Part shown: piece after piece, positions 501 through 52,097 of the stretch
How positions within the stretch are numbered: the stretch's first letter is position 1
Layout of the letters: every line of letters starts with the position of its first letter
NCBI GenBank assembly: GCA_036785375.1
Contig: JAWMAR010000323.1
Location: 2,108,001 to 2,172,000, forward strand
Direction of reading: 5' to 3'
From: Leucoraja ocellata
Lineage: Eukaryota
DNA length: 64,000 nt
Position numbers and translations under genes: made by a program
Notes under the pieces: model-generated
Database searches by the model: none
Told to the model about the DNA's origin: nothing
What the model saw: only the letters and a program-made list of their open reading frames with translations

Positions 501-881
501 ATTAATCAAATGAGCACGAACCAAAAAAAGAGAGTTTTTTGGAATGGGACTGATTGCACTGTCTTAACAGTGGCTGGTATCATTGAGCATATACTATCAC
601 CTGTTCCTGTACTATAGCCAATCTTTGATGCTGAGATTTTATCCTTGCAGTTAGGAAGTATTCTGGAATGCTGCAGAGAATCTGGTGAGAAACTATGACA
701 GAACAATAAGATTTGGAGTTTGCCTGGTCTACCATCACGGGAATCCAAGGGGAGCAAGCTAATTGGAAGACCTAGCCCAGCATTCTGGTTCCTTTTGACA
801 TATTCATTCTCCATTCCATAGCAGACTGTAAAGCAGTCATTCATTGTTGTTCCATACATAGCACAATATATAATTTTGAGG

Positions 882-1389
882 GTTTAAGAAGGAACTGCAG
901 ATGCTAGAAAATCGAAGGAGCACAAAGACCAATCGAAGGTTGGGCGATTGTTTCGCCGAACACCTCTGCTCGGTCCGCAATAACCAAGCTGACCTCCCGG
1001 TGGCTCAGCACTTCAACCCCACCTCCCACTCCGTCTCCGACCTCTCTGTCCTGGGTCTCCTCCATGGCCACAGCGAGCAGCACTGGAAATTGGAGGAACA
1101 GCACCTCATATTCCGCTTGGGGAGTCCTGGGGGCATGAACATCGAATTCTCCCAATTTTGTTAGTCCTTGCTATCTCCTCCCCTTCCTCAGTCCCCCTGC
1201 TGTCTCCTCCCATCCCCCAGCCTTCGGGCTCCTCCTCCTTTTTCCTTTCTTGTCCCCGCCCCCCCCCCCCCCCCCCCCACACCCCCGAACAGTCTGAGGA
1301 AGGGTTTCGGCCCGAAACGTTGCCTATTTCTTTCGCTCCATAGATGCTGCTGCACCCGCTGAGTTTCTCCAGCTTTTTTGTGTACCTTC
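882..1389 (+). mobile_element. Penelope-like element 3' fragment (GIY-YIG end plus 3' UTR) with inverted tail
   Basis: ORF 901-1164 (RRLGDCFAEHL...PVAQHFN...KLEEQHLIFRLG...GMNIEFS) matches a PLE GIY-YIG C-terminus. TSD ATATAATTTTGAGG at 868-881 and 1390-1403. Confidence 0.85.
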
Positions 1390-2616
1390 ATATAATTTTG
1401 AGGATTGGATTAGAATGGACTGTCTGGAGCTAAAGACCATGGAAGTTATTCAGGTATGACCACACCATACAATGACATTGAGAATGTAAACTATCAAGGC
1501 CACTGTCCTTGGGTGCTTGTAATAGCTTATTTTTTGAACGTGTGTGCATCCATGATGGTGAACTGCACTTTGTGAAGAACTTACACCAAAGTAAGATACT
1601 GCTTTCACAGAGTGATGAGCTTTCACTGCTCTGCTTTCTCACATTTAATAGCCTGTTGGAGCTTCATACACACCAGCCTGAAAATTAATCTGTGAACTCG
1701 ATACACAGCAATGGCAAACACAAACTGTCAGAAGCAATATCACTCAACCCAAAGAAATTGGGACTTCAGCTGTGAAACTATTATATTTTTTGGCATTGCA
1801 TTTAAATGGCTTAAATGCTAAGGGGATAACAGTATATCTCACTTCAGAACATTTAAAATGTAGCATAGATTGTTACTTTCTGGAAAGTGGTGACCTGCCA
1901 TTTCTAGTACTGTACCATTGAGTGATTTGGAAGGCTTATGATTCAGAGGTACAGTTACAAAGCAAGTAACTTACACAGAGAGGATAAGGTCATAGAGGCC
2001 GAGTGGGCTTGTGTCTTCTGCTCGACTGATAAACGAGGAGTGTGGCACAAGTAGAGTCAAATTAAATGTGCCAATTGAAGACAGGGTAAAACTTTACTTC
2101 CTGGTTTTATTCATACAGATAAAAGTTTTTTGGAAGTTCTGTATCGATATGGCTGAAACGGATACTTCCAATCACAATATTTGCCAGGATTCCGAATCTC
2201 AGCTGCCATTTCGATGGGTGTTCACAGTATACAACATTAAAGGGGTTTATCTGTGGATTGGATTGATCAGCATTTGTATTGGTGTGGAGAGTTACCCTTA
2301 TGGCATCTGGGTACAGAGGGATTTATCTTAGTTGTGGACCTCTAATTTGCTGATACTTTACCAGTCTCTTCCAAAGCAGTCATTAGTATCTGGCAATGGA
2401 CTCCTGTCAATGTATTTCAATGATTTGTCTTCATTTTTCCCTTCTGCTTTCCTTTAACTGATAGCCATGACTTGTGCTCAAATCAGACTCACATTTGCCA
2501 GCTAAAGTACACACCAGCCTGAAGATGCATTTTGCATCTTAGTTTACATTTGCCCCTCTTTTTAATCTATTTAATTTCTCAGCAGCAGTCTTGCCACAGA
2601 CAAGTGTCACCACAGA

Positions 2617-6509: not shown

Positions 6510-6610
6510 ACTTACTTAATGCAAAATCATACGTGTTGGAAACTGAGGATGAGGGGAATAATATCCGAGTTCTTGGAATGCACAGGTATGACAGCAAAAA
6601 CAGGAAAGCT

Positions 6611-7179
6611 GGTTACACAAAAAAGCTGGAGAAACTCAGCGGGTGCAGCAGCATCTATGGAGCGAAGGAAATAGGCAACGTTTCGGGCCGAAACCCTTCT
6701 TCAGACTGATCGGGGGCGGGGGTGGGTGGGGACAAGAAAGGGAAAAGGAGGAGTAGCCAGAAGGCTGGGGGATGGGAGGAGACAGCAGGGGGGCTGAGGA
6801 AGGGGAGGAGACAGCAAGGACTAACAAAATTGGGAGAATTCGATGTTCATGCCCCCGGGGTGCAGACTCCCCATATTCCGTTTGGGGAGTCTGCACCCCG
6901 GGGGCATGAACATCGAATTCTCCCAATTTTGTTAGTCCTTGCTGTCTCCTCCCCTTCCTCAGCCCCCCTGCTGTCTCCTCCCATCCCCCAGCCTTCTGGC
7001 TACTCCTCCTTTTCCCTTTCTTGTCCCCACCCACCCCCGCCCCCGATCAGTCTGAAGAAGGGTTTCGGCCCGAAACGTTGCCTATTTCCTTCGCTCCATA
7101 GATGCTGCTGCACCCGCTGAGTTTCTCCAGCTTTTTTGTGTAACCTTCGATTCTCCAGCATCTGCAGTTCCCTCTTAAA
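6611..7179. mobile_element. Penelope-like fold-back insertion: perfect 263-bp inverted arms plus ~35-nt tail
   Basis: Arms 6611-6873 and 6883-7145 with a 9-nt spacer. Mirror ORFs 6636-7034(-) and 6722-7120(+). TSD AAACAGGAAAGCTGG at 6598-6612 and 7177-7191. Confidence 0.92.
7048..7083 (+). ncRNA. Minimal hammerhead-ribozyme-like core in the PLE 3' repeat
   Basis: CUGAAGA-A-GGGU(UUCG)GCCC-GAAACGUU: catalytic boxes, 4-bp stem II and palindromic ACGU stem III. Stem I pairing is weak. Confidence 0.55.
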
Positions 7180-7204
7180 CAGGAAAGCTGGAATGGACAT
7201 ATTG

Positions 7205-8655: not shown

Positions 8656-9337
8656 TATCAGAACATGCTGTTTGACTGGTCTATATAGTAAAGGTATTGA
8701 GGTTAGTAATATTAACGGTTTTAATAAAGGATTCCATGAACGTGATGTTTAATTAGACTCCCAGATCAATCCTTTCTACCTATGCTTTATTTGGTTTTAC
8801 TCATTCTTAAAAATAATTACCTAGTGCAACAAATGAGAGATGTCTCAACACTTTTCTTTTAGGACAAACACAATTCACATGGCAATAGTGAATTCACATG
8901 GCATTTCACAAGAGTTACAAAAAAATGAGTCTCTGCCGACATCAGAAAGTGAAGTTCAGGTTATTAATACTTTCAAATGAAACCCACTTCAGAAGATCCT
9001 GTTTGTTTTTAGTCATCTGACTTTTGAGCTGGAAGTACCTTTGGAGTAATTTGGAAAGGCTGCTGATATAGTTATATCCTTTGTGTTCCCTTGAGGTTTA
9101 TTGGAGTCAGTCGAGCTTTTTAAGGCACCTTTATGCTGTTGTTCATTTGGTTAAGCTTTCTTTGTAGCCATGGTATCATGACCTACCCTACCAAGGCTAG
9201 ATTCTTTATATTGGCAACTAAACTGCACCATCCAGTTTTCACATCTAACTTCAGCAACAAAGGAGAGGGGCCAGTTTTTTAAGCATAGATGTGAAATATG
9301 TATCATCACTCACAGGATCCATTGCAAGCAGTACAGT

Positions 9338-9541
9338 GTGTAGGAACGGACTGCAAATGCTGGTTTACACTGGAGATAGACACAAAATACTGGAATAACA
9401 GAACGGGACTGGCAGCATCTCTGGAGAGAAGAAATTGGTGATGTTTCAAGTCGAGAAGGGTCTCGAACCGCACGTCACCCATTCCTTCCCTCCAGAGATG
9501 GTGCCTGTCCTGCTGAGTTACTCCAGCATTTTGTGTCTATC
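9338..9541. mobile_element. Older Penelope-like fold-back insertion
   Basis: Imperfect arms 9375-9456 and 9461-9541 centred on TCGAGA-AGGG-TCTCGA, with an antisense tail at 9338-9374. Confidence 0.78.
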
Positions 9542-11030: not shown

Positions 11031-13179
11031 AGTTCCCAGTTCAGCCAAAAGGTCCTTGATGTGTGGTGTTAACAGTTTATTTTTTCACAGATGCTGCGTG
11101 ACGTACTGAATGTTTCTAACTTGTTCTGTTTTTTAACCTCAAAAGTATAGTGGGTAGATTGCATTTTAGGTAAGTTGCTGGAAGATACTGGAAACTCACA
11201 CTTGCAACTGGCAAGAAAAGCAATTAAGCAGAACTAGCAAGATGCCTAGTACAGATGGATTATATGACTCGGTCAACACTGTATTAGGCTTGCAATCTGC
11301 TTGATCAGCAGCAGGGTAGTAGACAGTCAGGACCTTTCTGAATGAATTTGAGCAATACACATTAACATACCTTCCTTTATTTTAATGTTAATTTGGCTCT
11401 GAAAATACCGATAGGGAATTGATTGGCATCCACAGTACTGGGACTGTGTTAGTGAATGGGACTCACACACTTTCCTTTCTTGCTGTGCCGTGCACAAAGG
11501 AATGAAACAGGTAGAGAAAGGAGCAGGATCTGGTTTGAGGGGATGGGTCCGAGGGGGGAGAAGGTCAGTGGTTGCTGTTTACAATGTGAATCAGCTCCTG
11601 AGGGGTCTGAAGGATTTCCAGAGCATGCTGCGACTGAGTGAATTGGTTCTGTGTGCCTCCAACCTTTCAGAATAAAGTGTAGTCTTGCTGAAACCCAAAC
11701 TTTAAAAACAAAACTAATTGTTGGAGACAAACGACATGCAAAACAAGCTGGCGTGTACACTGTTAGTCTATTTGATGATTTTGATACTGCTGCAAAGTTC
11801 ACACTGAAACACTCACCATACCTCGCATTGGCTGTGATGCATGAACTGGTGGCCTGCCAGAAAACACATTACAGCAGAGTTACACCAATGACACTCCGAA
11901 TAATTAAGCCACTCGCTGCTGTTTATGGTTAATTTTGTAATTTATCTGTAAGAGCCATAGCTGTCCTCATCTTCCTTGCAGTGACCCATGTGAACTACAG
12001 AGCAACTCACATCATTAATTGCTTTGGTACCTTTCTTTTTCAATTCCTCACATATATCAACAGATCCACAAGTGCAACTGAGCAAGCCAGTCAGCAGTGA
12101 GTAGTTCTGCTCAGTTGCATAATTGGAGAATGTTAACATATATCACTGTAGGCATGGGTTTTAGTCAATAAATTCTGTTCTTGCCAGCTTGGCAAAACAT
12201 AAATACTTCAAATTAATTTATTTGAATTCTACGCTGAAAATGCATGAAAATTATTTATGGCATCCAATTTTCAAGTATAATATAATTAAAAAGAAATGTG
12301 AACACGAGGAATGCCTGGGAAACCAATGAGGAGATTGTGCTGATATTTAGCAAATGAACAGGGTGGTGAGTGGATATGGATTGTATCCTATTTTTTTTCT
12401 TGAAGAATATGTTAAGTAAATTAAAATGTTTAAGGTTTTTCAAATATTTCAATATTAATAAGACTAATTTGATGAATAGGTTCTGAACCGTTTACATTAA
12501 GAAATAACAGTGCATAACTAACACAGTGCTATTCTTAACTAGACTATCACATCATTGTATTTCCTGGCATTATTATAAGATAGTGATAAATGATATTAAA
12601 ATAATCCTTTCAGGCTTGTCTCATCTCAGGAAATTGAAATATGTTCACATCCTCAGGCTAGATCATTTTCCAACAGGTAATAAAGGACTTATAAAAGGCA
12701 AAACACATTAGCCAATTATTTCACTAAATTGTGCCTCGACCGCAACTGCAACCTTGAACCTTTAACTTTCCTTCCCACATCCACAAAGCACATTTGACCA
12801 TTCACTGTCCAGAAGGTTCATTGCAAGTTTCAGCTCAATGGGGGTCATTTTGACTTAAAAAACCAGAACAAGTGAGCATGTAAGAAATACGAGCAGTAAT
12901 TTCCTTGTGTCACTTTGCACCTGCATCGCCTTGCAATAAAACCAGGCTCATCTGAAATTAGCCATGTTACTCTTGTTTCCCATGAACCTCCATACCCCTG
13001 AAGTACAAAAACACGTTTGTCTTGTCAACCATGTACCTATGTATTAGGTAAACAGTGATGTAGGCCTTTTTAAGACTGTGGGCATTTTGCTAAAAACACG
13101 TAGTCAAGTCTTACACAATAGGGCAGGTGGCAGCAGCAGAGAGGGAACCAGTGTAACCATTTCAAGTTACTATCTACCA

Positions 13180-14232
13180 CAACTATCTCAACTACACTTC
13201 TTCCCACCCTGCTTCCTGCAATGACTCTATCCCCTGCTACCAATTCCTCCGTCTACGCCACATCTGCGCCCAAGATGGGGTGATCCATACTAGAACATTT
13301 GAGATGTCCTCATTCTTAGGGAACGGGGGTTCCCCTCTCCATCATAGATGAGGCCCTCACTTGTGTTTCCTCGGTACCCCGCATCTCCGCCCTTGTTTCC
13401 CTTCCTCCTAGTCACAACAGAGACGGAGTCTCCCTAGTCCCTACCTTCCACCCCATCAGCCGTCGCATACAACACATAATCCTCCAAAATGTATGCCACC
13501 TCCAACGGGATCCCACCACGAGCCACATTTACCCATCTCCACCCCTTTCCACTTCCACAGAGACTGTTCCCTCCAGAACTCCCTGGTTAACTCATCCCAT
13601 CCCACCCAAACCACCCCCTCTACCTTTCCCTGCAACCGCAGAAGATGCAACACCTGTCGCTGTACATCCTCATTCGACACTGTCCAGGGACCCCAACAGT
13701 CCTTTCAGGTCAGGCAGAGGCTCACTTTCACCTCCTCCAACCTCATCTACTGTATCATTTGTTCAAGGTGTGGACTCTTATACATTGGCGAGACCAAACG
13801 CAGACTGGGCGATCGTTTTGCGGTACATCTTAGCTCAGCCCGTGTGAACCAACCTGATCTCCCGGTTGCTGGACACTTTAATTCTCCTTCCCATTCCCAT
13901 ACAGACCTCTCAATCCTCTGTCTCCTCCATTGTCAGAGTGACGCTAAATGCAAATTGGAGGAATAGCATCTCATATTTCGCTTAGGCAGCTTACAGGCCA
14001 GTGGTATGAATTTTGATTTCTCTCACTTCAGGTAGCCCCGGCATTCACACTGGCTTCTTATTTTCTTGTACAAACAGCTTACAATGGCCCATTTCCTTTA
14101 TCTCCATTACTTTTTGGCATATCTTTAATTCATTGTTATTTATCTCTCCACATCACCGTCTATATCTCTCGTTTCCCTTATCCCTAACCAGTCTGAAGAA
14201 GGGTCTCGTTACTCCAGCTTTTTGTGTCTAAC
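13180..14232 (+). mobile_element. Penelope-like element 3' portion (RT thumb/linker, CCxxC, GIY-YIG), degenerate
   Basis: ORF 13493-13966: FPCNRRRCNTC...SSNLIYCIICSRCGLLYIGETKRRLGDRFAVH. Confidence 0.9.
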
Positions 14233-14842
14233 CATTTCAAGTTACTGACTTTTCATCTGGTCATCTTTCACTGTTTCTCTGTTCACAGATCCCGAGTGAT
14301 CTGCTGAGTATTTTATTGCAAACATTTCTAGTTAACATCGTTGACATAATTTTGGGAACTTTTACAGTCAAATATCTGAGAAAGCACAGGTCTCGGAATT
14401 GGTTAGATTCACTAATGGAGCATGCCAATTCGATTAGACCTCTATTATCTCAGGAGATATATGATGTGAAATTTAAAAAAAGGGAATTGGGTTGAATCTA
14501 ATTCTTTTATGTGGAATGTTCAAGGAAACAAGTTTATATTAGATAGACGTTTGCTAGTGTTTATTCAGCCTGAATGTTTTGTAAAAATGTGATTACAGGT
14601 AGTATGGTGGTTGTGAAATCTAATGACTCTCATGTAAGCTGCAGTCAATAGCAGTGTGAATTTGGGGAATCTGGGTTTCTGTCATACGTCCACCTTGTAT
14701 TTGCTTTGAGCCATTTCCTAATTGAAAGCAGCGAATTATGGAATTTACTGATAAAATGCTTTATTACATTTGAGTGAAATGGGGTCATAGATCTCCAAAT
14801 ATTTTTCAGGGAGAGGAAACAAATGGGTGTGAGGTGATTAGA

Positions 14843-17756: not shown

Positions 17757-18851
17757 GGAATGGCAAGATGAAAGGCTGCACTTTGGTGTAGAGCTCGAAA
17801 AATATTTTGTGTCTTTTATGTAATGTTCAAAAGGTCTGCCCTTTCACCCATGGGTTTTAGGAATGAGTTTACCCATGCAGAGGAGGATGAAAGTCTCTGT
17901 GGTTTCTGATAAAGGGCTTCACATAAATGAGTTATAGCAGTTAAAACTCTGTTGGAAGTAAAATGTAGCAGTTTTGACTATTGGGCACTGTGTTCACAAG
18001 GGTATACAGTCAATGGGATAACGAGGAAGAGAATTCAAAATTTGATACATTGGAAATGGCCTCGCATTACAATGCAGTACTCCTTAATCGATGCTAATGG
18101 AGTTTTTGAATGTGGTGAACCAAAGGTAGTAGACATCAGTGCCATGGTGAATATGTATGCACTTTATATTGAGATTTAACCATTTGAAATCTCTTCCCAC
18201 TTTCTTCAGTGGGAAACTTCTCATATTCTCAGTTCTCACAATCTCGCATGGAACGGATCTGGGAGCCTGGTGCCCAGGAGAGTCCAAAAGCCAGCCAGTT
18301 AAACCCTGAGAGGCAACGAAACCTCAGGCAATTGAATATGATAATGTGGGTGAGACCAAACTAAGTCCTGCCCACAATACTTTTGAAAAACTTGACAAAT
18401 GGTAAAGCATTTCATTGTTCCTGAATGAATGTTTCAGAAACATTTAATAACTATTACAATCAATTGTATATTTAAAATAGAATATAAAAATGAATTAATT
18501 CAAAGCATCAGATAAATGGAAGTATTCAAAAATAGTTGCCAGAAGTTAGGTTTCAACTGCCGTTGGTTACATTAAACATGTGCTGTGTGCGCCTCTAATG
18601 CTCACTAAGTAAAGAATAAAGAAACTCAGCAAAAGTTAGCATCGCACCATGGATTTCAACACAGAGTAATGCATTAAAATAGGGCCTGCTCTGCTTTCAT
18701 CAGACGCTGCAAAACTCACAGCACTAAGTTGTTAGAAATGGACTCGGAGCTTAACAAAAGCTCCCCATGGCAGCCAGAGATCAGCTACAGGATAGATCAC
18801 CATAGGTGTGAGGAAAATGCAAGGATGTGGAGACACAGTTCACTGTGGTAT

Positions 18852-18979
18852 TTAAGAGGGAACTGCAGATGCTGGAGAATCGAAGGTTACACAGAAAAGC
18901 TGGAGAAACTCAGCGGGTGCAGCAGCATCTATGGAGCGAAGGAAATAGGCAACGTTTCGGGCCGAAACCCTTCTTCAGA
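18852..18979 (-). mobile_element. Short Penelope-like 3' repeat insertion
   Basis: Near-identical to 7051-7179. TSD TGTGGTAT at 18844-18851 and 18980-18987. Confidence 0.88.
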
Positions 18980-19719
18980 TGTGGTATGTCTGGGCAGCCC
19001 ACCACATGATGGACTCTCCCAGTCAAGTCCCATGCTGTGGGCAGCCCCAAGCCAATGTGAGATAAGAGTTGATCAGGGGACCAGAGATCACATTATGCAA
19101 CTCAGCAATGATTTGAACCAAAATGTCGTAAACAGTGATGAGATATTCACTAAATCTTCTTTCCTTCATGTTTTAATTGAAAACTGAACCTGGGATATAT
19201 TGCTTTCGAGTTGTTAAATGCCTCAGTGCAGACCATTCGCTTGCTGTTTTATTTCTAATTCCTGTGTGATGTGTTCAGTGCTTTGCTGTAACTGATCAAC
19301 TAAGGTCGTAAATTGATCCCATAAGCTCCAATATATGCCTGTAGCAGAGGATACATGTAATCAGCAACCGCTGACATTATTAGGTTAGTGACTGATGGTG
19401 GGCAAATGTAGACTGAGCTAAGGTGTATAAAGTGTGGAAATGGTGAGGCCACTTTTGTATTGGACATGATTTCACCTTAAGGTCAATTTATAGGCATTTA
19501 CATATTTCCTCTTTGTTTTTGTTCCATACAGCTTTAGAATTCCCATACAATGAATGATCTTATAGATCCTTAAGCATATTTTCTGGTGTTAAATGTTGGG
19601 ATTTTTAACAAGGTTCATTCCGCCACTGGCTTACGGGGAGATCAGGTGGGAAAGTGGTAACGGAGGCTAGCCAGAAGGTTCAGGCTGATGAATGTGAAAC
19701 TGTGGGAAAAACAATATAA

Positions 19720-25800: not shown

Positions 25801-26009
25801 CCATGGCAGGGATCCCACGACCTGAAACGTTGCCTATTTCCTTTGCTCCATAGATGCTTCCTCACCCGCTGAGTTCGACCACCGCTTCATCATTTTGCAC
25901 GTCATGCATGCATCAGCCACAGTCCTTCTGTAGGGTAACATTTACTTTTCCCCCCCACACTTAAGAATTAAATGATGAAGTTGGTGGCAATCAGGTCCTG
26001 ATTAGTTTA

Positions 26010-26104
26010 AGGTACACAAAAATGCTGGAGAAACTCAACGGGTGCAGCAGCATCTATGGAGCGAAGGAAGTAGGTAAAGTTTCGGGCCGAAACCCTTCTT
26101 CAGA
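26010..26104 (-). mobile_element. Penelope-like 3' repeat fragment
   Basis: Matches 6611-6705. Flanking duplication CTGATTAGTTTA at 25998-26009 and 26105-26116. Confidence 0.8.
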
Positions 26105-26109
26105 CTGAT

Positions 26110-26430
26110 TAGTTTAGTTCAGTTTAGAGAGACAGCGTGGAAACAGGACCTTCGGCCCACAGAGAACGCGCCGACCAGTGATCCCTACACATTAACACCG
26201 TCCTACACACACAAAGGACAATTCACATTTATACCAAGCCAATTAACCTACAAACCTGCACTTCTTTGGAATGTGTGAGGAAACCGAAGATCTCAGGGAA
26301 AACCCTCATAACCACGGGGAGACATACAAACTCCGTACAGACGGCACCCGTAGTAGGGATCAAACTCGGGTCTCTGGTGCTGCAAGTGTTGTAAGGCAGC
26401 AACTCTACCGCTGCACCACCGTGCTGCCCA
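26110..26430 (-). mobile_element. HE1-type SINE
   Basis: Head GGGCAGCACGGTGGTGCAGCGGTAGAG on minus, plus body and CR1-like tail. Confidence 0.88.
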
Positions 26431-27957: not shown

Positions 27958-29383
27958 TATTTATTGCATATGGCATGCAAAGCCTAACGTTGTAGGTCAA
28001 GGGTAGACATGCAGGCCAGGACAGCATCAGTTACTGGGTGGATGGCTTTGATGCCACCAGGGAAAAGCCTCAGCGAGCAGTCATTCATGATGTGTGGGAT
28101 GGTCTGGTCTGGATGTCCACAATCGCAAGCAGGGCTGTCTGCCATCTCCCACTAATGCAGGTCTATTCTTCCATGGATGGTGCGGATTCTGTTCAGGTTT
28201 AGCCATTGTTTGAGATGGAGGCCAAATCCTGGTTGCTTTCAATGCATTAACATCCTTCTGCAAATAAAGGGCCTGAAGTAGTCAATGTGAATGACCTGAA
28301 CAATGGACCATTAAAAATGCCTCACCGTGCTTTCTGGGTTACAGGACATTGATCAGCATGTATCAATGTAATTTTGATCTGACGTACAGATGCTTCAATC
28401 ACTCATTGAGATGCTTCAAATTGCTTGATTATGGTTTTGTGTTATTCAATTTCTGTGATGCTGAAAGGGTTAAAATCATTCATTTTCTTTCTGCTCTGTA
28501 ATATAAAATCAAACCACTGGAAATTCATAATCCAATTTAGAAATAAAGTAGCTTCAAATCCGTACTGATTTTGTACCTGATTATGTTCCGCGAAACTAGC
28601 TGTGGGAAAAGAATTGTCAATCATTCCAACAATAATGCCCTGACATTTCACCATGGGATATTAATGTACAAACATTTAGTTTGACAGAAGTTTCTCTCTT
28701 TTTTGCTATTTTATCCTTTATTTTTAAATGGAAATGTGCTTTCATTAAATTAATAGTCTGAAAGTTGCAATCATCAAGCATACTGAAAAAAATTTGTTCA
28801 CTAAGATCTCTGTGATGTCAATGTCAGATCTCAAAGTCACTATCAATTAAATGTCAATCACATGGCAATCAGCAGCAATTACGTCTTCAAACAGGCAGGA
28901 CAGCCAACCAGTTTGAAGTGTTAAAAAGATATTTGTTATTAATATTATCCAACTGCTTAATGTTTTCCAAATTAAGTAGTTGGATAAAACACTGGCGCAC
29001 ACACACATAAATTGAAATATCTCCAAGCATATGAGAATATATATTATTTTCAATGTTTTAAAATAATTCATTTTGGTTTATTTCATATGGCTATTGAAGT
29101 CCACACAGAGAAGTTTATTTTTTACAAAAGAGAAATTTTAGCAAAATTATGATTCATTTAACTTTAAAATTTAGTTACATCTCTTTCAACAACCCATAAT
29201 ATTTTCAGTAATTTTCCAGTGAAATTTGTTTGTAAATTCATTGATTTCACTAAATAATGATACAATAGCTCCTCATGAACGATAAACAGCAGGATATCCT
29301 ATTTCCTACATTTATTGTAGCTGCATATGTACATACCTCAGACGTTTATATTAGATTTTCTTTATCAGTCAATGTCATAGCCT

Positions 29384-29510
29384 CAAAAAGCTGGAGGACC
29401 ATAGAGGTCTCGACCCAAAACGTCATCCATTCCTTCTCTCCAGCTGAGTTACTCCAGCTTTTTGTGTCTATCTTCGGTTTAAACCAGCATCTGCAGTTCC
29501 TTCTTACACA
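29384..29510 (+). mobile_element. Penelope-like 3' repeat with short inverted stub
   Basis: Antisense stub CAAAAAGCTGGAG, then the sense repeat and tail. Imperfect flanking duplication AATGTCA(A)TAG. Confidence 0.7.
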
Positions 29511-29743
29511 AATGTCAATAGGCTTACTGTTACATGACAATACAAATACAATTGTAACAATCAAGGGATATGGGGGGAAAAGCAGGGACGGGGTAGTGAT
29601 TTTAGATGATCAGCCATGATTATATTGAACGGCTGTGCCGGCTCAAAGGACCAAATGGCCTACTCCTGCATCTATTTTTCTATGTTTCAATACAAGTTTT
29701 AAATTTGATTTTTGTTTTGATTTTAGTGTGTCTTAAAGTGTGT

Positions 29744-32470: not shown

Positions 32471-32487
32471 TCATGAGTCAAGAGTGT

Positions 32488-33097: not shown

Positions 33098-34250
33098 CAA
33101 AGGGAGGCTACAGATTTTTGGCTGTTGAGTAGAGCAACTACTCGTGGATAAAAACTGTTTTTAAGTCTGGCTGTGGCAGCTTTGACAGTCCGGAGTTGCC
33201 TTCCAGAGGGAAGTGATTCAAAGAGTTTGTGGCCAGGGAGAGAGGGGTGAGAGATGATCTTGCCTATTCCGCTTCCTAGCCCTTGCTGTGTACAGTTCGT
33301 CAATGGAGGGAAGATTGCAGCCAATAACCTTCTCTGCTGATCGGACGATTTGCTGCAGCCTCCAGATGTCGTGCTTGGTGGCTGAGCCAAACCAGATCAT
33401 GATGAAGAAGGTGAGAACAGACTCTATGATGGCAGTATAGAATCGTTGCCTGTGGCAGATTGAGCTTCCTCAGCTGCCGTAGGAAGTACATCCTCTGTTG
33501 TGCCTTTTTGACTGTGGAGTCGATGGTAGCCCCCCATTTAAGGTCCTTGGAGATGATGGTTCCCAGGAACTTAAAAGACTCCGCAGTTGTGACTGTGGTG
33601 TTGTTGATGGTGAGTGGGGTAAGGGGAGGGGGAGCTCTCCTAAAGTCTACAATCAAGTCCACTGTCTTCAGAGCATTGAGCTCAAGGTTGTAACGATGGC
33701 ACCAGGATGGCAGCTGTGTCACTTCCTGTCTGTAGGCAGATTCCTCCCCATCCTGGGTCACTCCAATCAGGGTTGTGTCATCCGCAAACTTGAGAAGCTT
33801 GACAGAGGCGTCTGTGGAGTTGCAATCGTTGGTGTAGAGAGAGGAGAGGAAAGAGTACACAGCCTTGTTTGTCCGGTGCAGGAGTTGCAGTTCATCCACT
33901 TTGTTCTTGAGAGAACGTACGTTTGCCAGGAATATGCTCGGGAGTGCTGTGCGTGATCCTCGTCGCCGGGGTCGGGTGAGTGCTCCAGAGTGCTTCCCAT
34001 GGGTCCTCCTCTGTCTCAAGACCTTGAACGCAGCCACAGCCCCGCCGACGAATATGTCCAAATAATCCAGCGAGTGAGAGAAATCCGGAACGATGTTTGG
34101 AGGTACTGCATGTCCGATGTTTATGAGTACCTCTCTTGTGAAAGTGATCTTTGTAGGGTGTTCACAGACGACACAAACGGACATACAAAACAGCAAGGAG
34201 CAGTACACCGTGGCCGCGATCGTCGGTGCCAGCAGCAGCAAGCAGCCTAA
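33098..34250 (-). mobile_element. Rex1/Babar-like LINE with a large internal deletion
   Basis: ORF 33300-34277 joins LPSIFLANVRSLKNKVDEL (APE start) in frame to SLYTNDC...KFADDTT...FKFLG...KKAQQRMYFLRQL (RT end). Confidence 0.88.
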
Positions 34251-35274
34251 TCTGAGCTTTAATACCTTCTTTGGCATTATATAAAGATGTCTATTAGGCC
34301 TGGGAAAGAGCCATGGTGTGCAAGCTTTCCATCTGCTTCCAGGAAGGCACCTTCAATAAAGTCCTGATGTATTTTTCTCTTGCTGCCAAAATCTCATTGC
34401 CCACGTCCATCCTTCTGAGTGAATAGCCATCCACATTCCATCTTCCCAATCAGCATCTAATAAAGCTTTGCCCAGTCATATCCTGAAATTCAAGCTGAAA
34501 TCTCCCAGAGTATCCTCTCCCCCAATTCTTTCCCTAATGTGCTGTCCACATTCCTCTCCCAACATAACCTTGTCATATACACCAAATGTTGGAGTTACTC
34601 AGCGGGTCAGGCAGCATCCCTGGAGAAAGGGAATAGGTGATGTTTTGGGTTGAGACCCTTCTTCTGATTGGTGATTCCTTGAATCCTTGGGATTTTGTCC
34701 CAACATACCTCTCTATGAAGTCCCCCCTCAAACTTTGCCCTGTTTGTTCTTCTCCCCAACACACACCACAATCATCTCCCTAACACTTTCCAAGACATAA
34801 TTTCTCAGCAACAGAGCTATGTAATAATCTATTAAACACTTCCAAACTCTCACCCTGAGATTCTCTCCCTAACACACACTTGTGCTACTTTCCCCAATGC
34901 ACCTTCCATGATCTTCACCCCAACATGCCTACTGCTGTTCTTTCCTCAACACTCCCTCTCTCCCACAGCACACAAATCCCTTCTCATCCAGCCTGGAATT
35001 TATCCCTTTCCATAGTGTTCAATCTAGTCACTTCCATGACTGTGAGCCCCATAAATTTAAAAAGTGGAACTTAAAAGGGAAAAACTATTTTTGCAGGCAC
35101 AGGTCTACCCCAGATAAGGCAGAGTTCTCTTCTTGAGAACAGTTCATAGCCCTAATAATGTACGCTGGAAATAGTGCAGTGTACTGAGTTGCCACACAGC
35201 AAAGATACCCGCAGCTCTGCAACAGCCAGCAAATCCATCCCACAAATCTCCCAAATATTCATTCATGTTCATTG

Positions 35275-38941: not shown

Positions 38942-39130
38942 ACTCACGACCATACAGGCGACATGTCGCGGGGTGATGCCTGTATGGTCGTGAGTAGTGG
39001 CCCAAAGAGTCGTACCTTTTTCTGGTCGCCGCTGGATTTTCAACAATTTGAAACATTTTTGCAACCTGCTGCGACAATGATGGGTGCTGGCAAGCCGGCG
39101 AAAAAATAGTGTATGTGGGACAGGCCCTTT
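38942..39130. mobile_element. Truncated Harbinger-like MITE with internal hairpin
   Basis: Single TIR GTGGGACAGGCCCT at ~39116-39129. Inverted repeat ACTCACGACCATACAGGC / GCCTGTATGGTCGTGAGT. Confidence 0.7.
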
Positions 39131-39939: not shown

Positions 39940-41000
39940 TCAAAATTAGCTTGGTGGAGGAAGGCAGGGAGGCATGGTGGAAGGATGTTTTACCAATTAG
40001 AAGACTGTCACCAGTGGTATACTGTAGGGACCGGCACTGGAACTCTTATTCACTTGGATGTGAATGTAGGATGTATGATTAGTTAGTTTCCGAATTACAC
40101 AAAAGTTGGTACTGTTGTAGTAGTGGGGAAGGTTAACTGAGGCTACAGTAGATATAGATCAGATAGGAAGTTGGGCAGTGCATTGGCAGGTGGAATTTAA
40201 GTGTGAGGATGCATTTTAGGAAGTCAAATGGGTATAGGAAAACTAAATGGTAAATTGGATCCAAAGTTGGTTTGGTGAAAGGAGGCAGAGGACAATAGTG
40301 GGAGAATATTTTGCTAATGGACTATACAGTAAATATACAATAAATGATCAAATGCTAACTGATATTGATGGACAGAGGGACCTTGGGGTTCTTGTTCATT
40401 GTTTACTGAAAGTGCCAATATAGGTAGATAGGGTGGTAATGAAGTTCTGGAAATGTTTGTTTTCATACGTTGGACCATAAACGTTGAGACATTATGTTAC
40501 AGCATTTCGGAACACTGGTTATATCACACATGGAGTGTTATGCACTATGCTGGTTTCAATTCCTTGCATTGAGAATGTGGTTGTGCTGGAGAGAATGCAG
40601 AGGAGGTTCACCCGGGATGTTGCCTGTAGTAGAGGACTTTAGTTATGTGAAAGATTGGACACGTTTAGCTAATTTTCTTTGGAGTGAAAGAAACTGAGAG
40701 GTGACCTGATGGAGGTATATAAAACTGTACAAAGTATACTTAGGGTAGATATATTTTTCTTATGCTTGGTGTATCAGAAACAAGACAATATAGGTTAAAG
40801 GTAGGATGAAAGGCTTTAAAATGAGATTTGATGGGAAAGTGATAGTATTAAAATACAATCACTACTTTTAAGAGATACTTATATAGGCATTTAAATAGAC
40901 ATAGCATAGAAAGAAACAAGTGTGGGCAAATAGGCTGATTGCAGAATGGTATATTATAAGATGGTTGTCATGGATGTGGTGGGCAGAAGGTCCGTTCTAG
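39940..41000 (+). mobile_element. Old CR1-type LINE fragment
   Basis: Heavily mutated but collinear with 35330-36380. Confidence 0.75.
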
Positions 41001-41002
41001 AA

Positions 41003-41533
41003 ATATAGGAACAGAAAATAGGTGCAGGAGGAGGCCATTCGCCCCTTCGAGCCATGGCTGATCGTCCCCTATCAATAACCCGTGCCTGCCTTCTCCCCAC
41101 ATCCCTTGATTCCACTGGCTCCTAGAGCTCTATCTAACTCTCTCTTAAATCCATCCATTGACTTGGCCTCCACTGCCCTCTGTGGCAGGGAATTCCATAA
41201 ATCCACAACTCTCTGGGTGAAAGCGTTTTTTCTCACCTCAGTCTTAAATGACCTCCCCTTTATTCTAAGACTGTGGCCCCTGGTTCTGGACTCGCCCAAC
41301 ATTGGGAGCATTTTTCCTGCATCTAGCTTGTCCAGTCCTTTTATAATTTTATATGTTTCTATAAGATCCCCCTCATCCTTCTAAACTCCAGTGAATACAA
41401 GCCTAGTCTTCTTAATCTTTCCTCATTTGACCGTACCGCCATCCCAGGGATCAATCTCGTGAACCTACGCTACACTGCCTCAATCACAAGGATGTCCTTC
41501 CTCACATTAGGAGACCAAAACTGTACACAATAC
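41003..41533 (-). mobile_element. CR1-type LINE 3' end
   Basis: ORF 41072-41311 (GESRTRGHSLRIKGR...WNSLPQRAVEA). Confidence 0.9.
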
Positions 41534-44494
41534 AATTCTTTAACTTGGTAACTGTAATGTTTCTACTTGCAATATTAGTGGCAAGAAACCTTTGGACCAA
41601 ATGCTCTGGCTCAGTGCTTTATGAAAACAATCCCGATGCAGTTTGCTGGTTATTGGTATGTTTGTACTGAAATTAAAGATATACGTTATCAATGAGAAAG
41701 ATATACTTGTTATCAATGACATTAGCTATCTATCCTCACTACCATCACCTCACCATTCTTCCACAACGGATCCCTACTTCATTTTACACATTGTATATTT
41801 TCCTTCATGGTTTAGTGTTGAAGATATTTGCCTCTTGACTGTATTCACCCAAAGTATTAAGGGACAAATAAGCTTTTGTCTTCATGGAGACAAGTATGAT
41901 CATTGATCCGAATGAACTAATAAAAAGAGGGCAGCTTCTTGATAGTGCATGGAAGAGGGGGCTGACATTCTCTATCATGTGTGGAATTTACATTAACGCT
42001 TGTGATTAAAGATAAGTCATGCATGGCAGTATTTTATATATGGCCTCATTAGTGCAAGATAGATATCAGCTGGAAATTGGATTTCTGCACATAGATATAT
42101 CAGGGGCTTTCAAGCATGTTTAGATCTTCCGATATGCATCTGTAATTACAGAGAGAAAATGTGCCCTTGATCTTTGCTTGACTGCTCTGCCACTTGTATA
42201 TTTTGTATTAAAAAAACACTGGATTTGCATCATTTTCTCTCTATTTAACATTAAGGCAGTATGTTTCCTTTTTAGATTGATAAAGGTTTACTGCCCATGG
42301 CAATGAAAGGAAGAGAAAGACTTCATGAAAGAGAATGAGGGGTGACTTAACAGACATATGTAAAATTCTAAGCAGCCAATTTAGAGGGTAGTTAAGAGTC
42401 ACCGTCATTGCATGTGCAGAGGGATTTCAAATGGCTATTAAACCATGGTTTTAATGTTAGTATTACACATTTTTTTCATTTTTGATCATTTGTTGGTGAA
42501 TTAAGAAGCATCTAATTAGAGAAAAGCAAAGCTCATCAACCAGCTTGTTATGCAACAGGAGTTCTTGTCGTATGTGAATTTAATGCAAATTTCTGTGTAC
42601 CCACCTGTGTGTTTTTTGAAGGATTTGTTTTAAATGCAATTGCAATGCCTGGGGATCGTTTTTAAAATAGTGAAGATTAGGGCGGGGGCTTTCAGATGGT
42701 GGAGAAAGTTCTATTATTTCCACAAGAAATGTAGTTTTGTATCTATTCCAGGCAATTGTATATAATGGGTTTCCACTGCAGACATAACGGCATTAATATG
42801 AGAAGCTATTATGGTCTCGATAAATGTTGCAGCTTCCACAGAAATTGCATTTTGTCCTCTGTCAGTTTTGTGATTTTATACTTAAATATTTGATGTTCAT
42901 CCATTATATTTTAAAATGGTGAATAGTGTGGAAAGTGATAAATGTGTACAAAGGCTGCAATTATTATTCCATTAATCAAATCATCATTGAGATCTATATT
43001 TAAATGTCCTATCAAATTATCACAGCGCTGTGATGTGAATCTTTTGAATCAGGAAAAATTATGTATAACATTTTCCATTAATCATTGTACCTTTTGGCAT
43101 GGACAGGACTCTGTTCTATTAATAGTGCTAATCATTGCCAGAAGTATGAGCCTGAAGAAATATTATTAAGAAGTCTATCAGCTGGGTGAAGATTCTGGTC
43201 TTGAGAGGTTTCTCAAATGTAGCCTCTCTATTACACCAATGAATCAGTTATAAATGCCAGGAATAAAATCTCCATTTAGCATTCATACTCTGAAGTTCCC
43301 TATTCTGTTTCTGAATGCAATTGTGTTGCAGTTGCAATCGAGTTGTCCTTTGCAGTTCAATTCCCAACTGGCTTGAGACTTTTTCTTTTGTTAGCCAGAA
43401 GTGCTAACCTTAAAATAAATCCCTGGGGTGAAATTGCTGGAGTCCTGCGAAACACTGATTGAAGAAATGCACCAACTGTCAGGTTTGGGGCAAATCAATC
43501 ACCTCAAGTTTTTCATCATTTATCTTGCAGAATGTACCTGGGTCTGCAGTTCTACTGCTCTTGAGAGCAAATTTCCCTCATGAGTTATTAGGACATTTGA
43601 ATTAATGAGCTCGGTGCTTAGGGCTGAACCGTTTATAGAAATGGGAATCGGCATGCTGTGTGTTTCAAACAATTTATGTTGTGTCACTTTTATGAATGGG
43701 TTATTATTCTTATAAACTTAACAAAATCAATGCAATGCAGGTAAATTCAGAAGTATTTGTATTAAACTCAGTGAAAGCTGTCTTGTTCATTAAATCCACG
43801 TTCATTAAATCCACTTCCGTTGGTGTTGATTTCATTACCTCTGTTACAGCATTTCAGCATGTAGTGTTATCAATGCGTTCGTGCAAATTAACAGAATATT
43901 AATTTAACTATTAGTTGCAGCCATGACAGCCTTTACAGGTGGATTCTTCTTGATAGTGCTCAACTCAAATGTCATACAAAGCTGCATTTCAAAAGGCCAG
44001 GAATTTTTTGATTTCAAATTTTCTTTTTTACAAGGAAAGGGTTGCTCCAGCAGCCATGTCTCAGTACTGGAAGTTAAACAGAGCTAAGTATGTTTGACAG
44101 CATGTACCTTGTATTGTCCTTATACCTTCATGGCCTTGGGTTTGTGCTGTAACAAGTGCATGATGGCTCCGCATACAGCTGGAAAGATAAGCCAAAGATC
44201 ATTTGTTGCAACATAACTGCAGTCCCTAAAAACTGGCTGTGGAAGGCTGAGGGAGGAAATATTTGTTTCTTAATCCAGTAGGATTAGTTTAAAAAATATG
44301 TAGTAAATTTGAATTAATTTAATTTGGGTAAATCTAAATTGTTATCATCTGGAGGATTCAGATGGACTTTCTTTAAAACAAAAAGTCCCATCACACACAG
44401 AGCTTACTTTTGCCCATTTTGTCTATTTGCAGCATTAGATTGATGTGAAGAAGGGCTTTGTTTGCTTCCATACTACTAATTAGGCTTTTGATGT

Positions 44495-44678
44495 TTACAC
44501 AAAAAAGCTGGAGAAACTCAGCGGGTGCAGCAGCATCTATGGAGCGAAGGAAATAGGCAACGTTTCGGCCCGAAACGTTGCCTATTTCCTTCGCTCCATA
44601 GATGCTGCTGCACCCGCTGAGTTTCTCCAGCTTTTTTGTGTAACCTTCGATTCTCCAGCATCTGCAGTTCCCTCTTAA
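44495..44678. mobile_element. Penelope-like fold-back insertion: perfect 74-bp arms plus tail
   Basis: Arms 44495-44568 and 44570-44643 with a 1-nt spacer. TSD AGGCTTTTGATGTT at 44482-44495 and 44679-44692. Confidence 0.93.
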
Positions 44679-45233
44679 AGGCTTTTGATGTTACTGGCTA
44701 CAGGTTTGTGTACTTTGGTATTGATTGTGGGTTTCTGCATCTGAGATTTGTGGCTCTCGAGTTACACCTTGTTCCCTTGGTATGAAGAATAGACATGTGC
44801 CACAGTAACATATTTCCAGTTGTGTGTATATGTATCTATGCATGTGAGCGTGTGCGTTTGTATGTATGTGCGCAAACATGTATACTGCAGAAGGCACTTT
44901 ATTCATTGAATCCTGGCACGGAGCAAACCTCTTAACCAGGTGAAAACTGAGTTATGCCAGGAGGAGGAATGATCCTTTGGCTCTCTGAGGCAATGTGTAT
45001 ACATCCTTGCTGCTGTTCACCTCTCCTTCCCATCCATACAACAACTCCAACCGCATACCTTAAAATTTCTTTACTGGCTGCAATTGACCTCTGGCCTTTG
45101 TGATTTTGACATGTCTATTGCTGGCCAGCTACCTCTTTCTGCCATTTTTCTCAGTTAGAGTGGAATGCAAGAATGTCTCAGACTGATGACAATGAGCCAG
45201 AGCCGATGCCAATCTACAAGTGTTTGACTCCTT

Positions 45234-45327
45234 GGTTACACAAAAAAGCTGGAGAAACTCAGCGGGTGCAGCAGCATCTATGGAGCGAAGGAAATAGGCA
45301 ACGTTTCGGGCCGAAACCCTTCCTCAG
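45234..45327 (-). mobile_element. Penelope-like 3' repeat fragment (tail-less)
   Basis: Near-identical to 6611-6704, with CCTTG on both flanks. Confidence 0.85.
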
Positions 45328-45582
45328 CCTTGTTAGGTTTAAGATCGTCCCTTTATCAGCAATGTAGTGCAACAATTGGCCTGCTTTCAACATTGTTTGA
45401 GCAGGGTGGGACAGAAACAGCTGAATGTGTCAGCTCAACTTCACAATTCCAAAGGGAACTGCAGGCAATCAGCTGTTTCCTGTAAGTTAGTCTGGTTCTT
45501 GCATACACCCTCATCAGAACAGGATATCTCAAGTGAGAAGTAACTGATAGATCTGTCAATCCACTTCGTAGATGAATTTTAC

Positions 45583-48231: not shown

Positions 48232-50986
48232 ATCGGGGTGGGGTAGCTCTGTTGGTGAGGAATGAAATTCAGTCCCTTGCAAGTGGTGACATTGAAACAG
48301 GAGATGTGGAGTCAGTATGGATAGAACTAAGGAATTGTAAGGGTAAAACGACCCTACTGGGACATCTACAGGCCCCCAAACAGTAGCCTGGACATAGGGT
48401 GCAAGTTGAATCGGGAGTTAAAATTGGCATGTAGCAAAGGTAATGCTGTAGTTGTTTTGGGAGATTTCAACATGCAGGTAGACTGGGAAAATCAGGTTGG
48501 TACTGAACCCCAAGAAAGGGACTTTGTAGAGTGCCTTTGTGATGGATTCTTAGAGCAGCTTGTATTGGAGCCTACCAGGGAGAAGGCAATTCTGGATTTA
48601 GTGTTATGTAATGAACCGGATTTGATAAAGGAAATTCAAGTCAATCAAGTGAGTTTATTGTCATGTGTCCCTGATAGGACAATGAAATTCTTGCTTTGCT
48701 TCAGCACACAGAACATAGCAGGGATTTACTTGAGGTTAATGAGCCATAAGGAAGTAGTGACCATAATACGGTCAGGTTTAATCTACAATTGGAGAGGGAG
48801 AAGAGTAGATCGGAGGTGTCAGTGTTACAGTTGAATAAAGGGGACTATGGGGCAATGAGGGAGGAGCTGGCCAAAGTTGTCTGGAAGGATATCCTAGCGG
48901 TGATGTCAGTGGAACAACAATGACAGGTATTTCTAGGAATAATACAGAAGGTGCAGGATCAGTTCATTCCTAGGAGGAAGAAAGATTCCAAGGGGAGTAA
49001 GGGGCGACCATGGCTGACAAGGGATGTCGGGGACAGTATAAAAATAAAAGAGAAGAAGTACAACATAGCAAGGATGAGCGGGAGCAAGAGGATTGGGTAA
49101 TGTTTAAAGAACAACAGAAGATAACAAAAAAGACAATACAGGGAGGAAAGATAAGGTACGAAGGTAAGCTCGCGAATAATATAAAGGATAGTAAAAGCAT
49201 CTTTAGGTATATGAAGAGGAAAAAATTAGTTAAGACCAAAGTTGGATCCTTGAAGACTGAAAAAGGTGAATTTATTATGGGGAACAAGGAAATGGTAGAT
49301 GAGTTGAACAGGTACTTTGGATCTGTCTTCACTAAGGAGGACACAAACAATCTTCCTGATATAGTAGTGGCCAAAAGATCTGGGGTGACAGAAGAACTGA
49401 AGGAAATCCACATTAGGCAGGAAATTATGTTGGGTAGACTAATGGGACTGAAGGCTGATAAATCACCAGGGTCTGATGGTCAGCATCACAGGGTACTTAA
49501 GGAAGTGGCTCTAGAAATTGTAGACGCATTGGTGATAATGTTCCAATGTTCTATAGACTCAGGATCAGTTCCTTTGGATTGGAGGGTAGCTAATGTTATC
49601 CCACTTTTTAAGAAAGGTGGGAGAGAGAAAACAGGGAATTATAGACCATTTAGCCTGACATCGGTGGTGGGGAAGATGCTGGAGTCAATTATAAAAGATG
49701 AAATAGCAGCACAGGATCAGTCCGAGTCAGCATGGATTTACGAAGGGGAAATCAGGCTTGACTAATCTTCTGGATTTTTTTGAGGATGTAACTAGGAAAA
49801 TGGACAAGGGAGAGCCAGTGGATGTAGTGTACCTGGACTTTCAGAAAGCATTTGACAAAGTCCCACATAGGATATTAGTGGGCAAAATTAGGGCACATGG
49901 TATTCGGGTTAGAGTGCTGACATGGATACAAAAAATTGGTTGGCAGATAGGAAACAAAGAGTAGGGATTAACGGGTCCCTTTCAGAACGGCAGGCAGTGA
50001 CTAGTGGGGTATCGCAAGGCTTGGTGCTGGGACCGCAGCTATTTACAATATACATTAGCAAATTTGCAGATGGCACAAAGCTGGGTGGCAGTGTGAACTG
50101 TAAGGAGGATGCTATGAGAATGCAGGATGACTTGGATGGGTTGGGGGAGTGGGCAAATGCATGGCAGATGAAGTTTAATGTGGATAGATATGAGGTTATC
50201 CACTTTGGTATAAAAAAAAGGCAGATTACTATCTACATTGCGTCAAGTTGGGAAAATGGGAAGTACAACGGGATCTGGGGGTTATTTTTCATTAGTCTAT
50301 GGAAGTAAGTATGCAAGTACTGCAGGCAGTGAAGAAAGCGAATGGCATGTTGGCCTTTGTAACAAGAGGAGTCGAGTATAGGAGCAAAGTGGTCCTTCTG
50401 CAGTTGGACAGGGCCCTAGTGAGACCACACCTGGAGTATTGTGTACAGTTTTGGTCCTCTAATTTGAGGAAGGCCATTCTTGCTATTGAGGGAGTGCAGC
50501 GTAGGTTTACAAGATTAATACCCGGGATGGCGGGACTGTCATATGCTGAGAGAATGGAGCGGCTGGGCTTCTACACTCTGGAGTTTAGAAGGATGAGAGG
50601 GAATCTTATTGAAACATATAAGATTGTTAAGGGTTTGGACACGCTACAGGGAGGAAACATGTTCCCGGTGTTGGGGGAGTCCAGAACCAGGGGCCACAGT
50701 TTAAGAATAAGGTGTAAGCCATTTAGAACGGAGACGAGGAAACACTTTTTCTCACAGAGAGTTATGAGTTTGTGGAATTCTCTGCCTCAGAGGGCGATGG
50801 AGACCGGTTCTCTGGATACTTTCAAGAGAGAGCTAAATAGGGCTCTTAAAGCTAGCGGCGTTAGCGGATATGGGGATAAGGCAGGAACAGGGTACTGATT
50901 GGGGATGATCAGCCATGATCACATTGATGGCGGTGCTGGCTTGAAGGGCCGAATGGCCTACTCCTGCACCTATTGTCTATTGTCTA
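48232..50986 (+). mobile_element. CR1-type LINE ORF2, near full length (APE plus RT), multiply frameshifted
   Basis: GGVALLV, ESVWIEL, LGDFN, PTREKAILDLVL, KSPG.DG, GNYRP.SLTSVVGK, YLDFQKAFDKVPH, KFADG, RPHLEYCVQFW, and a (TATTGTC)n tail. Confidence 0.95.
48634..48720 (-). mobile_element. Rex1/Babar-like 3' tail nested in CR1
   Basis: Nearly identical to 20138-20205 (GTTTATTGTCATGTG.CCCTGATAGGACAATGAAATTCTTGCTTTGCTTCAGCACA). Confidence 0.8.
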
Positions 50987-51249: not shown

Positions 51250-51571
51250 TGCAGCACGGTGGCGCAGCGCTAGAATTTCTGCGTTACAGCATTTGCAGCA
51301 TGGGAGACACTAGTTTGATCCTGACTGGGTGCTGTCTGTATGGAGTTTGTACGTTCTCCCCATGACCTGCATGGGTTTTCTCCAACATCTTTGGTTTCCT
51401 CCCACACACCAAAGACGTACAGGTTTGTAGGTTCATTGGCTTAGTATAAATGTAAATTGTCCCTCGTGTGTGTGGGATAGTGTTTGTGTGTGGTGATCGC
51501 TGGTCGGTGTGGACTCGGTGGGTCGAAGGGCCTGTTTCCATGCTGTATCTCTAATCTAAACTAAACTAAAC
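51250..51571 (+). mobile_element. HE1-type SINE, full length
   Basis: GCAGCACGGTGGCGCAGC head, body, GGGCCTGTTTCC and a (CTAAA)n tail. Confidence 0.9.
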
Positions 51572-52097
51572 AACCTCAGTGAAACTATCTGAGGCTCCCT
51601 TGTCATTGAGGATTGGTCACGCCTCTCAGACACACCTAGTTGAGAAGCATCGCCTCTCTTGACTCCCAGGTAATTGAAGAGAGGTGGACACGAAGTGCAA
51701 TTGGAAGGCTGGATCCAATGGCATGGTTTCAGGATTTGCAACAATCAAGAAACGCATCCAAATAAGCTGGGAAAGGGATTTGGTGATAAATGGACCAAAG
51801 ACACTTCATTCAAGATACAAGCAATTTCCACTGATTTATATTGTTAATTTTGCACCTCGTTTGATAATGAAACATTCTAACCATGCAGAATTAATTTTTC
51901 TTCTTGGGGGATGCTAAGTTAAATGTGTTACTAGTTCTCACACATAGCTCAGTTTAGCTTATTGCAAACTGAATTTTCCAGATTCATTTTGGGCCAGAAC
52001 ATGCTGAAATAACTAAATCGTACAGCAACTCATCTTGTTCAATGCCATCCAGCCCATGATCTCATGTGTCAGGAGATGCTGCCACTGAGACAGATTT

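Follow-up and report, generated by a model that had tools for sequence, protein, structure and literature searches.

A perfect head-to-head palindrome of a Penelope-like element in a skate genome, and priming at two sites as its possible origin

Head-to-head palindromes with a tail on one side and a TSD are a structure already known for Penelope-like elements (PLEs). In the available portion of PMC8557442, an inverted 5'-truncated copy at the 5' end and a tail of 30-40 bp at either end are given as standard for PLEs, and in that of PMC3846280 an inverted pseudo-LTR (pLTR) overlaps the direct one by 15 bp, with a 31-bp one-sided tail, TSDs and palindromes at the junctions. Self-priming from such junction palindromes was inferred there as early as 2013, and the original prediction that the present locus reveals a recurrent mechanism had therefore been preceded. 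The EN+ PLEs of Adineta vaga in that paper, for instance Pen2a_Av, have long and few copies, whereas the skate insertions measure 100-600 bp and are densely spaced, with 16 loci in 64 kb, and self-priming was placed on an antisense template, with no tie between palindrome and hammerhead in the text at hand.

In an anole PLE, according to the accessible text of PMC11167929, the tail is the stretch between two start sites of reverse transcription (RT), and both target strands are cut and extended; the late steps of PLE integration are called unvalidated in the same text. This element, PAc, a Poseidon of Anolis carolinensis, is like the skate family in its hammerhead within the pLTR and its tail between two start sites. 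It belongs, however, to a clade without the CX2-5CxxC linker that the skate family has, and its ORF starts in stem II, a start not seen for the skate family in the window. An AC-rich stem-loop in the tail is a further feature of the anole element, whereas the fold of the skate tail has z = -1.44, with 20 of 200 shuffles as good, and the consensus fold of seven tail copies has four pairs and no two-sided change.

The metazoan PLE hammerheads of PMC4209133, as far as its available text goes, share with the skate motif a CUGANGA core, an extra base before G10.1-C11.1, a palindromic 15.2-16.2 and the lack of helix III. Those of Schistosoma have a helix II of 7-8 bp and a helix I of 4-5 bp, while a descriptor scan gave 4 bp and just 0-2 bp in the skate, and the cut site is GUC there and GUU at the predicted site in young skate copies. 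Hammerhead pairs 100-700 bp apart on opposite strands had already been noted in that paper. A literature search with most subscription journals outside its scope turned up nothing on twin priming in PLEs, nor anything on this family in skates or sharks, and the available parts of PMC12910113 and of a 2026 retrozyme preprint held nothing on junctions.

The window analysed here, 64,000 nucleotides of Leucoraja ocellata DNA, comes from a vertebrate and is rich in repeats, LINE-type RT fragments among them. The palindrome at 44482-44692 is built up as follows, in window positions:

44482..44495, + strand: left TSD, 13-14 bp, its last base common to the arm
44495..44568, - strand: inverted tail-less copy of the 3' part of the pLTR (44495-44561 new, 44562-44568 the shared native repeat)
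44562..44576, + strand: native 7+1+7 quasi-palindrome GTTTCGG-C-CCGAAAC, the turn of the palindrome
44562..44678, + strand: direct 5'-truncated pLTR copy, assigned by identity to 7062-7179
44644..44678, + strand: 35-nt tail between the 3' end sites B and A
44679..44692, + strand: right TSD

A scan for perfect inverted repeats found the arms 44495-44568 and 44570-44643 to be exact reverse complements of 74 bp with a C at 44569 as spacer, second in the window after those of 263 bp at 6611-7145; in five base-shuffled windows, perfect arms reached at most 8-10 bp. The 35-nt tail (44644-44678) is present on one side only, and the whole is enclosed by a 14-bp direct repeat, AGGCTTTTGATGTT, at 44482-44495 and 44679-44692, where random pairs of 30-nt windows give a direct repeat of at least 14 bp with a P of 0.0007. 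The base at 44495 is counted in both arm and TSD, and the locus can be described as 74-bp arms with a 13-bp TSD or as 73-bp arms with a 14-bp TSD. The predicted 74-bp arms, 1-nt spacer, tail of about 35 nt and 14-bp TSD are thus borne out, with the TSD put at 13-14 bp since that base is shared. The placing of the turn within a native 7-bp inverted repeat also proved right, as the repeat is present at 7062-7076 of the reference copy (6874-7178).

The stretch 44562-44679 is identical to 7062-7179 at 118 of 118 positions. The 15-nt quasi-palindrome is therefore native, and new sequence in the left arm amounts to 67 bp; the other 7 bp of each 74-bp arm belong to the native repeat. The identity of the arms was considered as proof of self-templating and rejected, as the independent copies at 6611 and 45234 are equally identical to the copy at 44495-44678 over an 82-nt core. 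Because of this match, perfect arms are evidence of a young family and no more.

The repeat is the 3' pLTR of an endonuclease-containing PLE. At three loci (926-1389, 6874-7178 and 13742-14235) it is preceded by the C-terminus of a GIY-YIG endonuclease, and one feature joins the end of an RT/endonuclease ORF to the repeat and so ties it to a PLE:

13160..14235, + strand: old broken Penelope-like ORF end (C-terminal part of the RT, CX4CX2C linker, GIY-YIG), then 3' UTR and repeat

The GIY-YIG match at 13412-13963 has an E of 0.0002 and 22.0 bits, slightly below the cut-off of 22.6. Upstream of it, in the old copy at 13160-14032, is a CX4CX2C linker with the sequence CNRRRCNTC, and the CCHH residues are found as two Cys within the GIY-YIG motif and two His downstream, like the C-terminal GIY-YIG with CCHH and upstream CX2-5CxxC of the Neptune and Nematis EN+ PLEs in the accessible part of PMC8557442. 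RT-endonuclease proteins from cartilaginous fish match this copy as well: out of 51 candidates, 22 passed, and its best relatives are in Leucoraja erinacea (72%) and Rhinoraja longicauda (68%). The copy also matches residues 159-451 of P0005 at 47%, and since P0005 has RVT_1 at 1-121 and GIY-YIG at 355-432, an RT upstream of the endonuclease in a single ORF is indirectly suggested for the skate element. By its linker the element would be of the Neptune/Nematis type, and Neptune is favoured over Nematis only because Neptune and Poseidon are the vertebrate groups. Direct and inverted pLTRs with an optional tail of 30-40 bp (here 35 nt) and TSDs of variable length agree with a PLE. The 64-kb window holds no full-length copy of the family and no intact ORF or RT core of it. 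A third decayed C-terminus of the endonuclease is seen at 32000-32220, followed by a pyrimidine-rich 3' UTR without a clear hammerhead repeat.

All eight matches to a minimal hammerhead descriptor (CUGANGA, helix II, GAAA and UH core), searched on both strands of the window, are in this family. Stem II is GGGU-UUCG-GCCC at 7060-7071. The turn had been predicted to lie exactly on stem II, and it does overlap it: the repeat at 7062-7076 covers the 3' part of stem II and the GAAA. The two pair differently, however, and are mutually exclusive, with predicted RNA energies that are about equal (-5.0 kcal/mol for the turn-repeat hairpin against -5.1 for stem II), and the CUGAAGA core is missing from both arms at 44495-44678, where there is no intact hammerhead motif. 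Helix II is 92.5% paired in ten copies without any two-sided change, and 500 of 500 shuffles are as high; for the turn repeat, 85.5% paired across the copies, 87 of 500 are, and these values speak neither for nor against the two pairings. Rfam gave no match at gathering scores in the whole window and eight weak matches over 6990-7200, none to a hammerhead family, and MFE folds of the repeat do not show a hammerhead. With a helix I of 0-2 bp, no covariation in the ten copies and no Rfam match, the assignment as a putative ribozyme leans on the core motif. No perfect short inverted repeat longer than the quasi-palindrome was found in the native stretches scanned (305 nt and 464 nt).

A profile search of the window gave 25 matches at E up to 1, with arms counted separately, and the census of TSDs covers 16 loci, leaving out the three weakest fragments (11084, 32777 and 37398). 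Apart from the locus described above, the inverted loci and three of the solo copies are:

6598..7191, + strand: sister palindrome; 263-bp arms, 9-nt spacer within endonuclease C-terminal coding sequence, tail on the direct arm, TSD up to 15 bp, 2-nt microhomology at the turn
868..1403, + strand: asymmetric inverted insertion; 14-bp TSD, inverted tail-bearing arm of ~45 nt (882-927), direct copy of ~460 nt that contains the end of the endonuclease, the 3' UTR and the hammerhead motif and stops without a tail at 1389
9337..9539, + strand: old head-to-head pair whose junction is in the hammerhead region; the inverted arm bears the tail, the spacer belongs to the tail-less arm, TSD undetectable
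29371..29524, + strand: old inverted insertion with unequal arms; inverted arm of 13 nt without tail at 29384, tail-bearing direct copy, TSD degenerate
18844..18987, - strand: tail-bearing solo copy; TSD of 8 bp, begins at the hammerhead core
25998..26116, - strand: solo copy lacking the tail; TSD of 12 bp, begins at the hammerhead core
45230..45332, - strand: solo copy lacking the tail; flanking repeat of 5 bp (chance level), begins at the hammerhead core

At 6 of the 16 loci the insertion is flanked by exact repeats of 8-15 bp, the chance of a repeat of at least 8 bp being 1.5%; the other ten, including 9337-9539 and 45234, have 7 bp or less, which is not above chance. Among the five inverted loci the TSD is exact and 14-15 bp in three, degenerate at 29371 (7 bp exact) and absent at 9337. 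The prediction that the family is a systematic producer of palindromes holds in so far as five of the 16 loci are head-to-head, two of them as perfect palindromes; hairpin self-priming as the general cause does not hold. All copies in the window are solo or head-to-head and none are head-to-tail. A non-LTR retrozyme, with tandem repeats and a hammerhead in each unit, was considered and rejected on this arrangement. A 58-nt internal pLTR fragment at 25818-25875, flanked by a 5-bp repeat and without site A or B, adjoins an L1/Tx1-like coding remnant (24316-25669).

Young copies end at one of two places, site A, the tail-bearing end, at 7178-7180 of the reference, or site B, the tail-less end, at 7142-7149. 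In each of the five inverted loci one arm ends at A and the other at B, and either arm may bear the tail. Site B is where the solo copies at 26011 (12-bp TSD), 23659 (8-bp TSD) and 45234 (flanking repeat of 5 bp, at chance level) end, the solo copy at 18852 (8-bp TSD) ends at A, and 1389 is the B end of a long direct copy (14-bp TSD) whose short inverted partner bears the tail. The ends at 1389, 26011 and 45234 were taken from alignments, as automatic extension halted at substitutions. That tail-less arms at 6611, 1389, 26011 and 45234 share an end was claimed earlier; the ends do cluster (7142-7149), but fold-back arms are not what is found at 26011 and 45234, both solo copies, or at 1389, where a long direct copy ends. 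As solo and direct copies end at B, the element makes this end without any fold-back, and the proposed stop of the second strand at a fixed site about 35 nt from the 3' end is not supported, given these same copies. Site B is best read as a start of first-strand reverse transcription, and the stop 35 nt short is better read as a second primer starting 35 nt inside. The tail ends at 7177-7180, 44679 and 18851 share 1-4 bases with the start of the TSD, which begins with A in every case, hinting at pairing of primer and template at site A.

The 5' ends are clustered too. The young solo copies that have flanking repeats, three in number, begin at 7051, 7052 and 7046-7051, 10-16 nt upstream of the turn repeat, and the old copy at 23749 at about 7049; this cluster is just 5' of the CUGA core and some 28 nt upstream of the predicted cut site. 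On the window itself the 5' ends of short solo copies are at 18979, 26104-26109, 45327, 23749 and 34670 (minus strand), again upstream of the CUGA core and not at the cleavage site. The cluster suggests a pause site or a short non-autonomous transcript. Any cDNA ending there carries the quasi-palindrome near its 3' end, and a turn at this place is therefore likely under twin-priming and fold-back models alike.

In L1 twin priming, both target strands prime on the RNA and a 5' inversion results that is joined by microhomology. The inverted and direct parts of L1 are different stretches, whereas in the skate PLE they are the same stretch offset by 35 nt, and for this reason the skate product is a palindrome. 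We lean towards a related explanation, in which each of the two target strands primes at a site of its own and the resulting cDNAs become joined through self-complementary sequence. The endonuclease would cut the target with a stagger of 13-14 nt, as the TSD suggests, and each target 3' end would prime reverse transcription on the element RNA, one at site A, the end of the tail, and one at site B about 35 nt inside. The arm at 44495-44568 would then be antisense cDNA that extended the top-strand 3' end at the inner site B. Both cDNAs would end near the hammerhead, the usual end of short copies of this family in the window. Being of the same sense, they could pair only at self-complementary element sequence, and their 3' ends may anneal through the 15-nt quasi-palindrome (14 bp), after which trimming of flaps and fill-in would give a perfect head-to-head palindrome with a one-sided tail. 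Extension of a single strand on the RNA would leave a solo copy with or without tail, and early abort of one cDNA an asymmetric inversion.

This two-site priming covers both kinds of solo copy, a tail on either arm and arms of unequal length. Solo or direct copies with a TSD end at B (26011, 23659 and 1389) or at A (18852), at 868-1403 the tail-bearing arm is ~45 nt and the tail-less one ~460 nt, and three of three young solo copies with flanking repeats start at 7046-7052. The two cDNA ends are predicted to pair at -19.6 kcal/mol, as against -4.0 for a single-strand hairpin, although inter- and intramolecular values are not directly comparable. The anole protein, a predicted dimer, cuts and extends both strands and starts at two internal sites that bound the tail (PMC11167929), but this in vitro support comes from a Poseidon element, a different family, and the available text does not address inverted products. 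The near-symmetry at 6611 (263 bp, 9-nt spacer, 2-nt microhomology) is also awkward, as it is expected in 4-14% of cases under uniform independent ends, and priming at two sites thus needs a shared RNA end or a pause site. The spacer is on the tail-bearing arm in both perfect palindromes, as fold-back predicts, the asymmetric loci could be palindromes that were later shortened by deletion, the locus at 9337-9539 is old with no detectable TSD, and there are only five inverted junctions in total.

The junctions bear on the other explanation of some weight, an amended form of the original proposal, that a first cDNA primed at the tail folds back at a micro-inverted repeat and that its far end is fixed at B by the endonuclease or by a second priming, which we consider possible but doubtful. 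Microhomology amounts to 7 nt at 44482-44692. At 6611, where the copy at 926-1389 served as the native sequence and two older copies agree with it, there are 2 nt, and at 9337, 868 and 29371 by eye about 3, 1 and 0 nt. Random junctions reach at least 7 nt in 0.07-0.36% of cases and at least 2 nt in 12-15%. The rarity of 7 nt by chance argues that the native repeat guided the join at 44482-44692, and to this extent the predicted self-priming at element-encoded hairpins is supported, as it is by the near-symmetry of the 263-bp arms at 6611, which fits a fold-back. Both perfect palindromes are near-symmetric, with spacers of 1 and 9 nt, and a 6-bp hairpin with a 3-nt loop and its 3' end paired at 7061-7062 has -4.0 kcal/mol, the lowest among the 3'-paired hairpins listed. 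The available text of PMC8557442 further suggests that the tail arises from resolution mediated by the endonuclease.

Self-priming is, however, not general. A strong hairpin is present at one of the five inverted junctions in the window, the 2 nt at 6611 are within the range of chance and the hairpin there has -0.6 kcal/mol in its native context, and six young arms (1389, both at 6611, 18852, 26011 and 45234) read through the 7-bp repeat. Neither 868-1403 nor 9337-9539 could be the product of a fold-back without later deletion, since in both the tail is on the arm reaching less far 5', and the solo copies ending at B also speak against it. A 9-mer, AATCGAAGG, occurs twice at the junction of 868-1403 (913-939), in the inverted tail and in endonuclease coding sequence, and the two cDNAs of this locus could have paired there.

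To return to priming at two sites, one order of events would account for several of these features, and we propose it tentatively: B primes first, and A primes second on the same RNA, displacing the first cDNA, until both halt, either at one and the same end of the RNA or at an obstacle immediately 5' of the hammerhead core, and join by self-complementary bases. If true, it would explain the arm of tail plus 9 nt at 882-927, where the second RT would have stalled at the first hybrid, and would likewise account for the symmetric arms at 6611, for a turn located at the hammerhead and for short copies that start at the core and not at the cleavage site. The order of integration events is not stated in the available texts of the PLE papers compared. 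A dense and young family like this one offers many natural junctions by which twin priming and fold-back can be separated. Perfect palindromes could moreover yield hairpin RNA or fragile sites.

We find it improbable that the palindromes were self-primed by an antisense RNA template with its 3' end folded back at the palindrome, the proposal in PMC3846280. It gives the head-to-head orientation and was put forward, in the accessible text, from junction palindromes and intron retention in other PLEs, but in the available part of PMC11167929 the anole element copies sense RNA in vitro from target primers at the borders of the tail. The asymmetric copies and the weak junctions would also be left unexplained. 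Micro-inverted repeats are known sites of template switching in replication, which counts for a switch during replication or repair that turned a solo copy into a palindrome after insertion. We nevertheless hold such a switch to be very unlikely, as the outer end of the inverted arm is on B or A in five different flanks and abuts the TSD, which argues that the element sets this end at insertion. Chimeric reads can give perfect palindromes, but a fold-back artefact of sequencing or assembly is hardly credible with direct TSDs, differing outer flanks, a one-sided tail, family-specific ends and decayed forms of the same structure at 9337 and 29371.

Other repeats in the window include 18-bp perfect arms with an 18-nt spacer at 38942-38995 and two short palindromes containing TTTTTCAACA at 22159-22180 and 23291-23316, which probably make up another repeat family. 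LINE RT/endonuclease remnants, which we take to be CR1-like and others, are found at 2619-3531, 20606-21562, 33300-34352, 41000-41533 and 48331-50986, and there is a gap of 200 N near 17560-17760. A SINE-like family with a tail of AAACT repeats, presumably HE1-like, has copies at 19719-20022, 26106-26427, 32486-32761 and 51251-51572, and the solo copy at 26011 is inserted into the tail of such a SINE-like element.
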